Source: Escherichia coli (GTDB lineage: Bacteria; Pseudomonadota; Gammaproteobacteria; Enterobacterales; Enterobacteriaceae). Taken from it: DNA of 5,196 bases. The stretch lies in assembly GCF_003334335.1 (NCBI RefSeq), contig NZ_QOWQ01000077.1, one strand, 5' to 3'. The notes beneath the pieces are model-generated. The model had not been told where the DNA came from, ran no database searches, and saw only the letters and a program-made list of their open reading frames with translations. Position numbers and translations under genes: made by a program. Below, in pieces: positions 168 through 5,196 of the stretch (position 1 is its first letter; the number at the start of each line of letters is the position of its first letter).

Positions 168-204
168 CTTTTCGTTTTCTCCGTTCTGTCTGTCATCTGC
201 GTTG

Positions 205-245
205 TGTGATTATATCGCGTACCACTTTTCGACTGTTTTACCGCC
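205..245 (-). promoter_or_regulatory. Putative rom promoter
   Basis: A perfect TATAAT on the - strand (complement of 209..214) lies about 45 nt upstream of the rom start. The -35 element is weak (AACAGT-like). Position is consistent with a rom promoter but is untested. Confidence 0.35.
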
Positions 246-299
246 GGTATTCTGCCGTCTGACGCTTTGACGGGTATTTCTGCCTGACAATACTGTCAC

Positions 300-420
300 T
301 GCCAAAAAACTGCCGTGCCTTTGTCGGTAATTCGAACTTGCTGACAGGACAGGATGTGTAATTGTTATACCGCGCATACATGCACGCTATTACAATTACC
401 CTGGTCAGGGCTTTGCCCCG
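300..420. other. bom/oriT-like region (basis of mobility)
   Basis: Lies between rom and the mbeC-like gene as in ColE1/pBR322. The segment gggctttgccccgacaccc (401..419) resembles the recalled pBR322 bom sequence ggctgcgccccgacacccgcc. An imperfect inverted repeat lies adjacent (358..399). The nic position is not determined. Confidence 0.5.
358..399. repeat. Imperfect inverted repeat (12-bp arms, 11/12 match, 18-bp spacer) within the oriT-like region
   Basis: Left arm gtaattgttata (358..369); right arm tattacaattac (388..399), whose reverse complement is gtaattgtaata. Read directly from the sequence. Confidence 0.6.
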
Positions 421-426
421 ACACCC

Positions 427-774
427 ATGTCAGATACGGAGCCATGTTTTATGACAAAACGAAGTGGAAGTAATACGCGCAGGCGGGCTATCAGTCGCCC
501 TGTTCGTCTGACGGCAGAAGAAGACCAGGAAATCAGAAAAAGGGCTGCTGAATGCGGCAAGACCGTTTCCGGTTTTTTACGGGCGGCAGCTCTCGGTAAG
601 AAAGTTAACTCACTGACTGATGATCGGGTACTGAAAGAAGTTATGAGACTGGGGGCGTTACAGAAAAAACTCTTTATCGACGGCAAGCGTGTCGGGGACA
701 GGGAGTATGCGGAGGTGCTGATCGCTATTACGGAGTATCACCGTGCCCTGTTATCCAGGCTTATGGCAGATTAG
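427..774 (+). CDS. MbeC/MobC-like mobilization accessory protein (ribbon-helix-helix nicking accessory factor)
   Basis: ORF of 115 aa immediately downstream of the bom/oriT-like sequence. The N-terminal region has the pattern RPVRLTAEEDQEIRKRAAECGKTVSGFLRAAAL, typical of RHH mobilization accessory proteins. A more likely start is the in-frame ATG at 451 (107 aa), which has GGAG at 438..441, 9 nt upstream. The C-terminal half does not show the motif I expect for the relaxase-interacting domain, so the family assignment is tentative. Confidence 0.6.
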   Translation: MSDTEPCFMTKRSGSNTRRRAISRPVRLTAEEDQEIRKRAAECGKTVSGFLRAAALGKKVNSLTDDRVLKEVMRLGALQKKLFIDGKRVGDREYAEVLIAITEYHRALLSRLMAD

Positions 775-848
775 CTTCCCGGAGAGAAAACTGTCGAAAA
801 CTGACGGTATGAACACCGTAAGCTCCCAAAGTGATCACCATTCGCTTT

Positions 849-866: not shown

Positions 867-964
867 GAGCTGAAAACGATCCTGACGCATCCTTCCTGTT
901 TTTCCGGGGTAAAACATCTCTTTTTGCGGTGTCTGCGTCAGAATCGCGTTCAGCGCGTTTCAGT

Positions 965-994
965 GGTGCGTACAATTAAGGGATTATGGTAAAT
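965..994. other. XerC/XerD recombination core site of cer
   Basis: ggtgcgtacaa (965..975), ttaaggga (976..983), ttatggtaaat (984..994), read directly. Confidence 0.85.
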
Positions 995-997
995 CCC

Positions 998-1426
998 TTA
1001 CTGTCTGCCCTCGTATCCATCGAGATAAACCGCAGAAATGGTGTCTGCCATTAGTTTCATTTTTTTCGGCGAAGGCATATCGCTGTTTGTGTATTTTCTG
1101 CCAGCAAAGGTTGTTGTGCTCCGGAGTGAGTGAAAAAATTTTTCTGAGTGGAATTCTTTTACACGTTGCTGTGCCGTTTCTGCTGATACTCCGGCTGCTT
1201 TGTCTTTCATCCCCATATCCCGGAACTGCTGAAAGAACGGGAGCATCATACGTATGGTGTCTGCTTTCTGGGTGTAGAAGTTAGGATCAAATCCATCATC
1301 TGAAGCATAAACATAATGCCGGGTATGTCGTTCCAGGCTGGTCTTTGGTGTGCATCCTGTAAGAGCTATTGTTGCTGTTATCAGAGGTATCAGAAGCAGC
1401 CTGGCAGCGGCAGATCTCATAAACAT
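998..1426 (-). CDS. Hypothetical lipoprotein (142 aa), function unknown
   Basis: The N-terminus MFMRSAAARLLLIPLITATIALTGC has a positively charged n-region, a hydrophobic core and an LTGC lipobox, indicating a signal peptidase II substrate. The mature part is hydrophilic. I recognise no family. The stop codon lies 3 bp from the cer XerD arm. Confidence 0.6.
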   Translation of the reverse strand: MFMRSAAARLLLIPLITATIALTGCTPKTSLERHTRHYVYASDDGFDPNFYTQKADTIRMMLPFFQQFRDMGMKDKAAGVSAETAQQRVKEFHSEKFFHSLRSTTTFAGRKYTNSDMPSPKKMKLMADTISAVYLDGYEGRQ

Positions 1427-1541
1427 CTCCTTGCGTTTTTAATCTTGATACTCAGGGAGTTATATCTCCGAAGAGTATCTCTTATCATACGTCGGTTTAC
1501 TCCCAATGTGATTTGATGGTCAATGAGTCAGGAATAATCCC

Positions 1542-1820
1542 GTGAAAAAATGTGTGCCAGTCCTGCTTTTTAGTGTTCTTTCTGCTTCGGTTGCCAGTCA
1601 TGCGGACAGCAATGTTTTTCAACAAAAGGCCGAGAAGACAAAAAACGGCATTGTTGCGGATGTTAATGCCAGACAGAAAATGTTCAGTAACAGACTGAAG
1701 ATACAACTTCAGATCGATGAGTTGAGAGCAGAGCTGGCTGGCACCAGAGATGCCCAAAAAAGAGAGGATTTGCGTAAAAAACTGGAGTCTCTGGAGCGGC
1801 AAAAGAAATCCTTACGCTGA
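1542..1820 (+). CDS. Hypothetical secreted or periplasmic small protein (92 aa), charged and probably helical
   Basis: GTG start with AGGA about 7 nt upstream. Signal peptide MKKCVPVLLFSVLSASVASHA with an AxA-like cleavage site (SHA|D). The mature ~71 aa are K/E/R/Q-rich with heptad-like spacing (QLQIDELRAELAGTRDAQKREDLRKKLESLERQKK). Divergently arranged with the lipoprotein gene across a 115-bp intergenic region. Confidence 0.5.
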   Translation: MKKCVPVLLFSVLSASVASHADSNVFQQKAEKTKNGIVADVNARQKMFSNRLKIQLQIDELRAELAGTRDAQKREDLRKKLESLERQKKSLR

Positions 1821-2129
1821 TGGGGGCGTATTTTCCCCGGTTTCTTCCATAACCTTTTTACCGTTCAGATATTTACGGGCGAGGCGAATGCGTCTTGCCT
1901 GGTATACCGCCGAGTAAGCCTGGGTGGGATTCACACCATTACTGATTTCACTGACCACATGACGCTGATCTGCCAGTGTCAGCGTGTAAACCTGTTTCTG
2001 GATGAGGTCACGGGCTTTGTCATGCTCATATCCGGCAGCAACAAGGGTGTCGAGAAGTCGTTTGTCTGTTTTGTTCAGTTTATGGCGGGGTGATTTGCTC
2101 ACATCGTTCTCCGTTTTTTCATGATCCAA
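1812..2129 (-). CDS. Hypothetical basic protein (105 aa), putative DNA-binding (HTH-like)
   Basis: ORF convergent with the 1542..1820 gene (9-bp overlap) and divergent from the colicin promoter. The segment DKRLLDTLVAAGYEHDKARDLIQ looks like a helix-turn-helix. An alternative start is GTG at 2102, preceded by GGAG. No family recognised. Confidence 0.45.
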   Translation of the reverse strand: MDHEKTENDVSKSPRHKLNKTDKRLLDTLVAAGYEHDKARDLIQKQVYTLTLADQRHVVSEISNGVNPTQAYSAVYQARRIRLARKYLNGKKVMEETGENTPPSA

Positions 2130-2199
2130 CAGTTTTATATCTCATCCTGATTTGCTCCGGTGTTCTGTTTCGACGTTCTCAATGCCTGCCTCCCCATAG

Positions 2200-2216
2200 T
2201 GTGATCCTTATTGCAA
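2200..2216. promoter_or_regulatory. Possible CRP-binding half-site upstream of the colicin promoter
   Basis: tgtgatccttattgcaa has TGTGA, a 6-nt spacer, then TTGCA (3/5 match to TCACA), centred about 60 nt upstream of the predicted transcription start. Colicin E1 expression is known to be catabolite-sensitive. The match is weak. Confidence 0.25.
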
Positions 2217-2234
2217 AAATGAAAATCCATGCTC

Positions 2235-2263
2235 TTGACATGGACAATGCTGAATAGTAGGTT
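2235..2263 (+). promoter_or_regulatory. Colicin operon promoter
   Basis: Perfect -35 TTGACA at 2235..2240, a 17-bp spacer, and a -10-like TAGGTT at 2258..2263, immediately upstream of the LexA boxes. Confidence 0.55.
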
Positions 2264-2267
2264 TTTG

Positions 2268-2298
2268 CTGTACATAAAACCAGTGGTTATATGTACAG
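2268..2298. promoter_or_regulatory. Tandem overlapping LexA (SOS) boxes
   Basis: CTGTACATAAAACCAG (2268..2283) overlaps a second box read on the bottom strand, CTGTACATATAACCAC (2283..2298). This dual-box arrangement is characteristic of colicin promoters and nearly identical to the recalled colicin E1 operator. Confidence 0.85.
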
Positions 2299-2346
2299 TA
2301 TGTTGTTTTTAATTTATTGTTTTAATTATCAAAGAGGAATTTCTTT

Positions 2347-3819
2347 ATGGATAAAGTCACTGATAATTCTCCAGATGTGGAGAGCACAGAATCTACTGAG
2401 GGGTCATTCCCAACTGTTGGGGTTGATACTGGCGATACGATTACAGCGACGCTTGCAACTGGAACTGAAAATGTTGGTGGAGGCGGTGGAGCATTTGGTG
2501 GGGCCAGTGAAAGTTCTGCTGCGATACATGCAACCGCTAAATGGTCTACCGCGCAGTTGAAAAAACATCAGGCTGAACAGGCTGCCCGTGCTGCTGCGGC
2601 TGAGGCAGCATTGGCAAAAGCGAAATCTCAGCGTGATGCCCTGACTCAACGTCTCAAGGATATTGTTAATGACGCTTTACGTGCTAATGCCGCTCGTAGT
2701 CCATCAGTAACTGACCTTGCTCATGCCAATAATATGGCAATGCAGGCAGAGGCTGAGCGTTTGCGCCTTGCGAAGGCAGAGCAAAAAGCCCGTGAAGAAG
2801 CTGAAGCAGCAGAAAAAGCGCTCCGGGAAGCAGAACGCCAACGTGATGAGATTGCCCGCCAACAGGCTGAAACCGCGCATTTGTTAGCAATGGCGGAGGC
2901 AGCAGAGGCTGAGAAAAATCGACAGGATTCTCTTGATGAAGAGCATCGGGCTGTGGAAGTGGCAGAGAAGAAGCTGGCTGAGGCTAAAGCTGAACTGGCG
3001 AAGGCCGAAAGCGATGTACAGAGTAAGCAAGCGATTGTTTCCAGAGTTGCAGGGGAGCTTGAAAACGCTCAAAAAAGTGTTGATGTGAAGGTTACTGGAT
3101 TTCCTGGATGGCGTGATGTTCAGAAAAAACTGGAGAGACAATTGCAGGATAAGAAGAATGAATATTCGTCAGTGACGAATGCTCTTAATTCTGCGGTTAG
3201 CATTAGAGATGCTAAAAAAACAGATGTTCAGAATGCTGAGATAAAATTAAAAGAAGCTAAGGATGCTCTTGAGAAGAGTCAGGTAAAAGACTCTGTTGAT
3301 ACTATGGTTGGGTTTTATCAATATATAACCGAACAATATGGGGAAAAATATTCCAGAATAGCTCAGGATTTAGCTGAAAAGGCGAAGGGTAGTAAATTTA
3401 GTAGTGTTGATGAAGCTCTTGCTGCATTTGAAAAGTATAAAAATGTACTGGATAAGAAAATCAGTAAGGTTGATCGGGATGCTATTTTTAATGCGTTAGA
3501 GTCTGTTAATTATGATGAGTTATCTAAGAATTTAACGAAGATATCAAAGTCGCTTAAAATCACTAGTCGAGTATCTTTTCTATATGATGTTGGTTCTGAT
3601 TTTAAAAATGCAATAGAAACTGGTAACTGGCGACCTTTGTTTGTCACGCTGGAGAAAAGTGCGGTCGATGTAGGTGTGGCAAAAATTGTGGCATTAATGT
3701 TTAGTTTTATTGTTGGTGTGCCTCTTGGTTTCTGGGGGATTGCAATTGTCACAGGTATTGTTTCTTCTTACATAGGGGATGATGAGTTGAACAAACTTAA
3801 TGAGTTGTTAGGGATTTAA
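2347..3819 (+). CDS. cta: Pore-forming colicin, colicin E1 family (490 aa); best recalled match is colicin 10
   Basis: AGAGGA lies 9 nt upstream of the ATG. Residues ~55-130 ([29 protein letters not shown]...[16 protein letters not shown]...[31 protein letters not shown]) and the C-terminal channel domain (YGEKYS...[28 protein letters not shown]...LKIT..VSF.YDV.SD...TG.W.PLF.TLEK.A.D.GV...VAL.FS...[15 protein letters not shown]....LN..NE.LGI) closely parallel the recalled colicin E1 sequence. The N-terminal ~50 aa and the central region differ. The 490-aa length, the 96-aa immunity protein and the 43-aa lysis protein fit my recollection of colicin 10, but colicin 5 or a close relative cannot be excluded without a search. 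Confidence 0.85.
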
Positions 3820-4106
3820 TTTCTCTTTAGAGTGTAATATATGAAACTTGGCAATCCTACTGGGATTGCCATTAATAAATAAAACAATGCAGATAACTTG
3901 CATAAGTACCAGGGTTCTTTTTTTAACTTTGTATTTTCTTTGATATATCTAGATATGGTTAATTTAGAGTATGGATATAGCAATACATGTATTGATGATA
4001 TAAATATAAATAACAAAGGAGTGTTATCATTGTCGTTAAATATTAAAATAAGAATCCATGGTATAAGTGATTCAGGTAAATTATGTAGGTAGTATTTTAA
4101 ATGCAT
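3816..4106 (-). CDS. cti: Pore-forming colicin immunity protein, E1 type (96 aa, integral membrane)
   Basis: Convergent with the colicin gene; the two stop codons overlap at 3816..3819. The protein is very hydrophobic and AT-rich in codon usage, with about three predicted transmembrane segments. Motifs [15 protein letters not shown] and [14 protein letters not shown] resemble the recalled colicin E1 immunity protein (...CPYSKYAIEHIF..., ...LAIPFGLLGLVY...). Confidence 0.8.
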
Positions 4107-4135
4107 AAGTATTTTTACTTTTGTTGGAAAGAAAT

Positions 4136-4267
4136 ATGAAAATAATAATTTTTCTAATTACAATATTATTCTTGTCAGGATGTCAAGCAAACTATATTCG
4201 TGATGTGCAAGGAGGAACCGTTGCACCATCTTCGTCTTCTGAACTGACGGGGATCGCGGTTCAGTAG
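4136..4267 (+). CDS. ctl: Colicin lysis (release) lipoprotein, 43 aa
   Basis: Not in the supplied ORF track (too short). Hand translation gives [43 protein letters not shown], with GGAAAG 5-10 nt upstream of the ATG. Signal peptide plus LSGC lipobox and a short mature peptide are typical of colicin lysis proteins. It sits downstream of the immunity gene on the colicin strand, as kil does in ColE1. Confidence 0.8.
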
Positions 4268-4275
4268 AAAAGATC

Positions 4276-4302
4276 AAAGGATCTTCTTGAGATCCTTTTT
4301 TT
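4276..4302 (+). terminator. Rho-independent terminator of the colicin-lysis operon
   Basis: Hairpin aaaggatct / agatccttt with a 5-nt loop, followed by a T7 run (4295..4302), immediately after the lysis gene stop. Confidence 0.65.
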
Positions 4303-4316
4303 CTGCGCGTAATCTG
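4287..4316 (+). promoter_or_regulatory. RNA II (replication primer) promoter
   Basis: -35 TTGAGA (4287..4292), 17-bp spacer, -10 TAATCT (4310..4315). The segment tcttgagatcctttttttctgcgcgtaatctgctgc is essentially identical to the recalled pMB1/ColE1 sequence upstream of the RNA II start. Confidence 0.65.
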
Positions 4317-4321
4317 CTGCC

Positions 4322-4429
4322 TGTAAACGAAAAAACCGCCTGGGGAGGCGGTTTAGTCGAAGGTTAAGTCAGTTGGGGACTGCTTAACCGGGTAACTGGC
4401 TTTAGTGGAGCACAGATACCAAATGCTGT
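4322..4429 (-). ncRNA. RNA I antisense copy-number control RNA (about 108 nt)
   Basis: The 5-prime end ACAGCAUUUGGUAUCUGUGCUCC... is the complement of 4429 downward and is homologous to the pMB1 RNA I start ACAGUAUUUGGUAUCUGCGCUCUG. The 3-prime end is the hairpin plus U-run complementary to aaaaaaccgcctggggaggcggttt at 4327..4351. Confidence 0.75.
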
Positions 4430-4865
4430 CCTTCCAGTGTAGCCGCTATAAGGCTTCAACTTCAAGAGTTCTGCGTATCTAAATCCACTATCCAGTTACC
4501 AATGGCTGCTGCCAGTGGCGTTAAGTCGTGTCTTACCGGGTTGGACTCAAGACGATAGTTACCGGATAAGGCGCAGCGGTCGGGCTGAACGGGGGGTTCG
4601 TGCACACAGCCCAGCTTGGAGCGAACGACCTACACCGAACTGAGATACCAACAGCGTGAGCTATGAGAAAGCGCCACGCTTCCCGAAGGGAGAAAGGCGG
4701 ACAGGTATCCGGTAAGCGGCAGGGTCGGAACAGGAGAGCGCACGAGGGAGCTTCCGGGGGGAAACGCCTGGTATCTTTATAGTCCTGTCGGGTTTCGCCA
4801 CCTCTGGCTTGAGCGTCGATTTTTGTGATGCTCGTCAGGGGGGCGGAGCCTATGGAAAAACGCCT
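4323..4865 (+). ncRNA. RNA II pre-primer of the ColE1-type origin
   Basis: Starts at gtaaacgaaaaaacc..., homologous to the pMB1 RNA II start gcaaacaaaaaaacc.... The 5-prime ~110 nt are diverged from pMB1, then the sequence is near-identical to pBR322/pUC from about 4500 onward (ccagtggctgctgccagtggcg.taagtcgtgtcttaccgggttggactcaagacgatagttaccggataaggcgcagcggtcgggctgaacggggggttcgtgcacacagcccagcttggagcgaacgacctacaccgaactgagatacc...). The 3-prime end is approximate. Confidence 0.8.
4437..4465 (-). promoter_or_regulatory. RNA I promoter
   Basis: On the - strand: -35 TTGAAG (complement of 4460..4465), 17-bp spacer, -10 CTACAC (complement of 4437..4442), 7 nt before the RNA I start. Same architecture as the recalled pMB1 RNA I promoter. 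Confidence 0.6.
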
Positions 4866-4870
4866 GCGGC
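4850..4870 (+). other. Origin of replication (RNA II to DNA transition point, oriV)
   Basis: ggcggagcctatggaaaaacgcc is identical to the pBR322 sequence surrounding the mapped leading-strand start. The downstream 4900..5036 (tcacatgttctttcc...gcggaagagcgcc) is near-identical to the pBR322 region carrying the primosome assembly site. Confidence 0.7.
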
Positions 4871-5091
4871 GCGGGCTTCTTCCGGTGCTTTGCTTTTTGC
4901 TCACATGTTCTTTCCGGCTTTATCCCCTGATTCTGTGGATAACCGTATTACTGCTTTTGAGTGAGCTGACACCGCTCGCCGCAGTCGAACGTCCGAGCGT
5001 AGCGAGTCAGTGAGCGAGGAAGCGGAAGAGCGCCTTATGTGACATTTTCTCCTTACGCTCTGTTGTGCCGTTCGGCATCCTGTCCTGAGCG

Positions 5092-5196
5092 TTATCTCTC
5101 TGTGCTATTTTCTACTTCAAAGCGTGTCTGGATGCTGTTCTGGAGTTCTTCTGCGAGTTCGTGCAGCTTCTCACACATGGTAGCCTGTTCGTCAGC
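5092..5196 (-). CDS. rom: Rom/Rop, 3-prime portion (stop at 5092..5094); continues as feature 1..167 across the circular junction
   Basis: Same reading frame as feature 1..167; reverse-complement translation ends ...QTRFEVENSTER*. Positions 5120..5196 duplicate 1..77. Confidence 0.85.
   Translation of the reverse strand, partial: ADEQATMCEKLHELAEELQNSIQTRFEVENSTER
5120..5196. repeat. Terminal 77-bp exact duplicate of window positions 1..77 (circular-plasmid linearisation overlap, not a biological repeat)
   Basis: aagcgtgtctggatgctgttctggagttcttctgcgagttcgtgcagcttctcacacatggtagcctgttcgtcagc occurs at 1..77 and 5120..5196. Implied unit length is 5,119 bp. Confidence 0.9.

Follow-up and report, generated by a model that had tools for sequence, protein, structure and literature searches.

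The origin of transfer of plasmid R64 contains two pairs of inverted repeats, of 17 bp and 8 bp, which lie immediately upstream of nikA, and the NikA site includes the 17-bp repeat (PMC3817090). The R64 nick was mapped by Furuya and Komano in 1991 (as cited in PMC3817090). Two further papers by the same authors bear on the repeat through their titles: that of 1995 (cited in PMC9413875) reports that NikA binds one arm only, and that of 1997 (cited in PMC4743918) reports that a fixed location of the NikA arm relative to the nick is required. R64drd11 mobilises the small plasmid pEC156 (PMC4743918), and a review cites pCERC7 for having acquired the oriT region of R64 (PMC11389934). A family of small plasmids that carry only nikA was described by Moran and Hall in 2017 (Plasmid 89:42, as related in PMC9282650); its members share a highly conserved oriT, with up to 3 mismatches, and have "longer (20-bp) inverted repeats" (PMC9282650). 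R64 mobilises NTP16 (PMC9282650, citing Moran and Hall 2017). pU302S, which has nikA and oriT only, is mobilised by IncI1 but not by IncX plasmids (PMC8623487), and it is mobilised by F at ~1e-6 and not by IncP plasmids (PMC9282650).

In this study, we analysed a stretch of 5,196 nucleotides from Escherichia coli, referred to as a whole as the window, which is a circular plasmid of ~5.1 kb in which positions 1-97 recur at 5100-5196. A 99.9%-identical twin record of this plasmid is pEcoUTI1a, from uropathogenic E. coli. We are highly confident that positions 344-426 of the window are an IncI1/R64-type oriT, carried on a small colicin plasmid with a ColE1 replicon that encodes its own NikA and no relaxase. 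The features that make up this region are as follows.

345-357, minus strand: nick region, reading (C358)ACATCCTG|TCCTG
358-399, minus strand: large imperfect inverted repeat of oriT, with 20-nt arms at 358-377 and 380-399
377 to 358, minus strand: nick-proximal arm, by homology the equivalent of R64 "repeat A", the NikA-binding arm
399 to 380, minus strand: distal arm
401-426, minus strand: conserved block GGGTGTCGGGGCAAAGCCCTGACCAG, holding an 8-bp inverted repeat (404-411 and 415-422) with a 3-nt loop
451-774, plus strand: nikA ("mobA" in PGAP), encoding a 107-aa ribbon-helix-helix (RHH) relaxosome accessory protein

The plus strand at 358-399 reads GTAATTGTTATACCGCGCATACATGCACGCTATTACAATTAC. 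The initial annotation had described arms of 12 nt in this sequence (358-369 and 388-399), complementary at 11 of 12 positions and separated by an 18-bp spacer. That description is exact, and it covers the outer part of a longer repeat whose 20-nt arms are complementary at 17 of 20 positions (85%), with a 2-nt gap between them. The three positions without Watson-Crick pairing are 366/391, 370/387 and 373/384, the last of which forms a G.T pair when the minus strand folds but not when the plus strand does. When 340-430 was folded as single-stranded DNA, the minus strand formed two adjacent hairpins with a z score of -5.0, compared with -2.4 for the plus strand; the stronger folding of the minus strand is due in part to the G.T pair at 373/384. 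Position 366 is the sole mismatch in the outer 12 bp, where the minus strand has an A opposite position 391.

On the minus strand, 8 nt past the repeat, we found CATCCTG|TCC, a nick motif of the IncI/IncP type, so the earlier statement that the repeat sits in an oriT next to a nick site holds, as it also does by the homologous oriTs described below. The minus strand from 356 to 345 is CATCCTGTCCTG. Within this region, CACATCCTGTCC is invariant in 9 of 9 aligned oriTs and near-invariant in 17, with a single T-to-C change. The aligned elements follow one another along the minus strand in the order GGGTGTCGGGGCAAAGCCCTGACCAG, large repeat, ACATCCTGTCCTG, and in both the 9- and the 17-oriT alignments the variable repeat is bounded on either side by invariant sequence, CACATCCTGTCC and GGGTGTCGGG..CCCTGACC. 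By homology with the mapped R64 and RP4 nick, the predicted nic site separates G350 from T349 on the minus strand, at 8 nt from the repeat; the exact bond is a presumed one. The 8-nt spacing between the repeat end at 358 and the predicted nick at 350|349 is constant across all aligned oriTs. With this polarity, transfer would proceed 5' to 3' toward lower coordinates, so that rom and ori would enter the recipient first and nikA last. On the other side of the repeat, the block at 401-426 is near-invariant in 17 oriTs of the I-complex type, and 98.5% of the cells of its 8-bp repeat are paired; this short repeat barely varies and is therefore uninformative on covariation.

A sensitive search with 300-440 identified 1,914 large conjugative plasmids that match 344-426 at 75-87% identity. 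These plasmids have a MOBP relaxase and an MPF_I transfer system and belong to the IncI-gamma/K1, I1/B/O and K2/Z groups or are untyped, and nikA-nikB lies directly downstream of the match in every conjugative plasmid examined. Plasmids of the IncI-gamma/K1, I1/B/O and K2/Z groups served as stand-ins for R64 in our comparisons. The window shares with the oriT-nikA-nikB region of R64 and the I-complex (IncI-gamma, B/O, K, Z) the succession of block, large repeat, 8 nt and CATCCTG|TCC beside nikA, a core of ~83 bp at the 75-87% identity given above, and a NikA of the same RHH fold family that is 53% identical. Among the hallmarks of an R64/I-complex oriT, the nick motif, the large repeat at 8 nt, the 8-bp repeat and the NikA gene are all present, and the one that is absent is a nikB gene following nikA in cis. 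No open reading frame (ORF) of relaxase size occurs in the 5.1-kb plasmid, and its twin pEcoUTI1a has no annotated relaxase, as the initial annotation had noted of the cis relaxase. Because it lacks a relaxase ORF, the window represents a dependent derivative and not a complete I-complex DNA-transfer module.

There are further differences from the I-complex. The IncI counterpart of the large repeat has 17-nt arms and a 6-nt loop, in contrast to the 20-nt arms and 2-nt gap of the window, and on the leading side, past the nick, the window is unrelated in sequence to I-complex plasmids. The proximal arm of the window reads TATAAC, in contrast to the TATTAC, or another complementary variant, of I-complex plasmids. 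This A366, where IncI has T, breaks one pair and counts against the R64-type reading; it is invariant in every member of the nikA family that was aligned and may be a specificity determinant for the diverged NikA of the family. The same I-complex-borrowed type of oriT is found in small oriT-only plasmids (pEC156, pKPN2 and "pOriT"), which lack nikA and rely on the NikA of the helper, unlike the window plasmid, which brings its own diverged NikA. Four further plasmids of 1.5-3.3 kb (L008, L009, L010 and L018) lack nikA as well, and each has an oriT of the R64 type in which the nick region is the same and the repeat covaries. Their replicons are varied (Col(MG828), ColpVC and rolling-circle Rep), and from their sequences they appear to be pure oriT hitchers on I-complex helpers.

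The arms of the large repeat change from lineage to lineage and are still complementary to each other, as in GCAATTG/CAATTGC, GTAATCG/CGATTAC, GGGAATGTC/GACATTCCC and GTATTTG/CAAATAC. Covariation was counted on a fixed structure of 15 pairs in 17 oriTs. Changes on both sides were found at 8 of the 15 pairs, and 92.9% of the cells were paired, compared with 32-48% when the partner columns were slid by 1-3 positions. The observed covariation score was reached by 0 of 500 shuffles, a figure that is not a probability, as the 17 aligned sequences are related and the shuffle control overstates significance, while the slid-partner control is unaffected. A compensatory path can be followed within the nikA family, from GTAATTG/CAATTAC through GCAATTG/CAATTAC to GCAATTG/CAATTGC: the outermost variable pair is T359/A398 in the window, carries a one-sided C359 in pOSAK1, pU302S and L024, and is changed on both sides in the Serratia plasmid L023. 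Structural constraint on the arms is the best reading of these data, and it is favoured by the slid-partner control and by how many independent pair types there are. Symmetric binding of a protein to duplex DNA would also fit the covariation. Since R64 NikA is reported on one arm only, the co-evolution of the arms is best explained by pairing in the transferred single strand, where the paired arms would form a termination hairpin. The covariation provides independent comparative support for pairing of the arms and fits the termination-hairpin model proposed for R64.

A separate observation concerns which part of the arm NikA reads. Two conjugative I-complex plasmids, L006 and L016, encode the same NikA (WP_001291058.1), and the outer halves of their arms differ (..ACATTCCC versus ..ACAAATGC), while the inner half, CGGTCCGACA, is common to both. 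This suggests that NikA recognises the inner portion of the arm, with pairing as the sole constraint on the outer portion.

The gene downstream of the repeat encodes a NikA homologue. A Shine-Dalgarno sequence, GGAG, at 438-441 serves the start at 451; a longer ORF from 427 is without one. The product matches the Pfam NikA-like family PF21983 (E = 4.4e-18) and scores 113 bits, with a cut-off of 80, to the NCBIfam "MobA" equivalog NF041264. It is 53% identical to IncI1 NikA and 43-51% identical to other MPF_I NikAs, and its sole match of solved structure in the PDB is 2BA3, the RHH domain of R64 NikA. No NikA of a conjugative plasmid in PLSDB is more than 55% identical to that of the window plasmid (range 43-55%), which leaves the natural preferred helper uncertain. 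Another, better-matched helper has been suggested as a possibility (PMC9282650).

The position of the repeat, at 52 nt before the start of nikA and within any transcript begun farther upstream, could also suggest that it is not a transfer element and primarily regulates nikA, as an operator for NikA autorepression or as a hairpin in the 5' untranslated region. RHH accessory proteins commonly autoregulate, as does MobC of RA3 (PMC4175270), and one promoter-like site, at 267-294, points toward nikA. However, a single such site is at chance level (0.8 expected), and its -35 element is deleted in pOSAK1 and L024; we rejected it as the nikA promoter, as a chance-level match that is not conserved in the family. 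A regulatory element does not explain why, in about 1,900 conjugative plasmids, the repeat is conserved at a constant 8 nt from an invariant nick motif, nor why it is present in L008, L009, L010 and L018, which have no nikA to regulate. We regard a primarily regulatory repeat as quite improbable. Autoregulation could be an added role of the repeat, but it cannot be the main one.

The initial annotation had assigned the region to the ColE1 superfamily (MOB-HEN/MOBP5), with the repeat as the recognition hairpin of a ColE1-type oriT and with an MbeC-like accessory protein; on that reading, MbeA-family relaxases of other ColE1-type plasmids would make the nick. There are real likenesses to ColE1 bom with its MbeA/MbeB/MbeC/MbeD system. 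A 26-bp block, GGGTGTCGGGGCnnAGCCCTGACC (GGGTGTCGGGGC..GCCCTGACC), is common to both, as are the general layout of block, spacer and nick, a ColE1-type replicon with RNAI and rom, and the direction of transfer with respect to ori; MbeC, like NikA, is an accessory protein of the RHH class (PMC4175270). The region looked "bom-like" because of this shared 26-bp block, and the block at 401-426, followed by a small accessory gene, is indeed there. The resemblance stops at its edge. In an alignment of the window with the oriTs of ColE1 and an IncI plasmid, ColE1 shares the block GGGTGTCGGGGCGCAGCCCTGACC and then diverges: it has neither the large repeat nor the CATCCTGTCC nick region, and conservation with the ColE1-type nick region was not seen beyond the 26-bp block in this alignment. 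We take the ColE1-type nick region to be ..GTATACTGG|CTTAAC... The oriT of ColE1 lies between ori and rom, whereas that of the window lies between rom and the accessory gene, and the ori-rom oriT that ColE1 shares with the colicin plasmid L011 is missing from the window plasmid. The accessory protein is likewise unrelated in sequence. BLASTP of the plasmid's NikA against ColE1 MobC/MbeC returned no alignment, the match to L011 MobC was marginal (E = 0.012 over 26 aa), and the Pfam family is NikA-like and not MobC; what remains of the "MbeC-like" label is the RHH fold class, within which the gene product is a NikA homologue. mbeA is not among the ORFs of the plasmid or the annotated genes of its twin.

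Taken with a nick region and a repeat of the IncI1/R64 type (MOBP, NikA/NikB), these differences make a ColE1-superfamily origin very improbable. The proposal that this element decides which helper can act survives in part: it should determine the helper relaxase, but the family of that helper is not that of ColE1. Relaxases of the ColE1 family would probably not mobilise the fragment. The expected helper relaxase is an I-complex NikB, so failure with ColE1 relaxases would not refute oriT function. There is next to no chance that the repeat is a fortuitous palindrome or a non-functional intergenic relic, a reading that has nothing but the three imperfect positions in its favour and is opposed by randomisations that never reproduce the repeat (0 of 200 dinucleotide-preserving shuffles for the outer 8+8 pattern, and 0 of 60 first-order Markov plasmid simulations for inverted repeats that reach 17/20 and have a loop of at most 10 nt, versus one real case), by compensatory changes that keep complementarity across lineages, and by retention of the module, which we found in 389 plasmids of PLSDB and in 295 of 5,426 complete E. 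coli genomes.

The R64-type oriT of the window is that of the nikA-only family of small plasmids, which has already been described, and it is not a new discovery. Those 389 PLSDB plasmids, nearly all of them small and with the gene labelled "mobA" or "nikA", carry window positions 180-800 at 90-100% identity; pCRP3, pOSAK1, pU302S and NTP16 are examples. Like the family of pCERC7, NTP16, pU302S, pOSAK1 and pCRP3 (the "pEC34A-type" oriT of oriTDB), the window has nikA and no nikB, 20-nt arms, a ColE1-type RNAI/rom replicon and cargo joined at a multimer resolution site, and just the cargo, a colicin block, differs. The NikA of the window plasmid is 100% identical to that of pU302S (pEcoUTI1a and pU302S NikA share one accession, WP_000166966.1) and 99% identical to that of NTP16. 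Its oriT at 344-426 has one mismatch to pU302S, and NTP16 has the same repeat and nick region. All of the defining traits of the family, namely NikA, the oriT with 20-nt arms, RNAI/Rop, the lack of a relaxase and a cer-like cargo junction, are present in the window.

Several database labels for these plasmids deserve comment. The MOB-suite typing in PLSDB gives "relaxase MOBF" for pCRP3, pOSAK1, pU302S and NTP16 (3-8 kb), which are without an annotated relaxase gene, and in PGAP the NikA homologue appears as "MobA" and a small ORF within RNAII/ori as a "replication initiation protein." All three labels are probable annotation artefacts.

In the remainder of the plasmid, this module is combined with a colicin. 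The replicon is of the ColE1 type, with rom and with RNAI at 4327-4427 by Rfam, and the Rfam search of the window returned no other family. In pEcoUTI1a the annotated products are Rop, the 107-aa "MobA," an Exc2 lipoprotein and two hypothetical proteins, together with a 490-aa pore-forming colicin, a colicin K-type immunity protein and a lysis protein. The features of the cargo and of its junction are as follows.

965-994, plus strand: cer-like Xer core GGTGCGTACAA-TTAAGGGA-TTATGGTAAAT (that is, GGTGCGTACAATTAAGGGATTATGGTAAAT), the right-hand junction of backbone and cargo
2347-3819, plus strand: 490-aa pore-forming colicin
3816-4106, minus strand: colicin K-type immunity protein (Cki)
4136-4267, plus strand: lysis gene

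We take the core at 965-994 to be a XerC/XerD site of the cer type. The window is 100% identical to pCRP3 from inside ori through rom, oriT and nikA to this core, and just past it switches to a colicin-plasmid lineage, in which it is identical to L011. The plasmid is thus a mosaic of a backbone (~4800-5099/1-994, ori-rom-oriT-nikA) and a second part at about 995-4800, and its cargo of colicin, Cki-type immunity, lysis and exc2 genes is 99% identical to L011. This 6.8-kb colicin plasmid (NZ_CP010159) is the nearest relative of the cargo, with 99% identity over window positions 943-5063. It has a complete ColE1-type mobC-mbeA-mbeB-mbeD region and, between ori and rom, a ColE1-type oriT, neither of which is present in the window plasmid. 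The combination of nikA backbone and colicin cargo occurs in just two PLSDB records. At the DNA level, the nearest relatives of the colicin are colicin 10 and colicin K plasmids (91-94% identity), and these relatives, along with the length of the protein, suggest a mosaic of the 5/10/K group.

The mosaic contains one further element that resembles the nick region, located as follows.

5076-5087, plus strand: second exact copy of CATCCTGTCCTG, between ori and the 3' end of rom, inverted with respect to the oriT copy at 345-356 (minus strand)

The two matches to this 12-mer in the window, against 0.03 expected by chance, flank rom. The second copy stands where ColE1 and L011 have their ColE1-type oriT, and it is absent from both of those plasmids. 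It is present in pCRP3 and in the Serratia plasmid L023, and pOSAK1 and L024, of which the latter is the most diverged of the members examined, keep its CATCCTG core. We saw no repeat next to 5076-5087, and under the R64 model the site should therefore not initiate transfer. It could be a relic, a pseudo-nick site or a functional secondary site. We also considered the second 12-mer as the boundary of a swapped module and rejected this, since the window is already nikA-family-like within ori, ahead of the 12-mer, and has its other junction at the cer-like site.

By homology to R64, a mechanism for transfer of this plasmid can be proposed. NikA dimers or tetramers would bind the nick-proximal arm (minus strand, 377 to 358) and bend the DNA. 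The bend would position NikB, supplied by a co-resident I-complex plasmid (IncI1, B/O, K or Z), on the nick region 8 nt away. NikB would then cut the minus strand at CATCCTG|T (350/349) and remain on the 5' end, and the strand would be exported through the MPF_I type IV secretion system of the helper, with rom and ori first and the repeat and nikA last. In the recipient, the incoming single-stranded repeat would fold into a hairpin beside the regenerated nick, and NikB would terminate transfer and recircularise the strand. The nick bond, the NikA-bound arm and the termination hairpin are the predicted elements of this scheme. We consider it unlikely that the 20-nt arms, the unpaired A366, the private NikA and the second nick-like 12-mer together form a specialised hijacking device and not a passive R64-type copy; in such a device NikA would be an adaptor for the NikBs of several I-complex or other helpers, and the second motif would serve as a secondary site of cleavage, termination or recombination and would have shaped the mosaic backbone.

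The identification of an R64-type oriT corrects how this plasmid should be annotated. The colicin plasmid is neither "non-mobilisable" nor dependent on helpers of the ColE1 type, and it should be mobile in any cell shared with an IncI-complex plasmid, a group that includes major carriers of ESBL genes.
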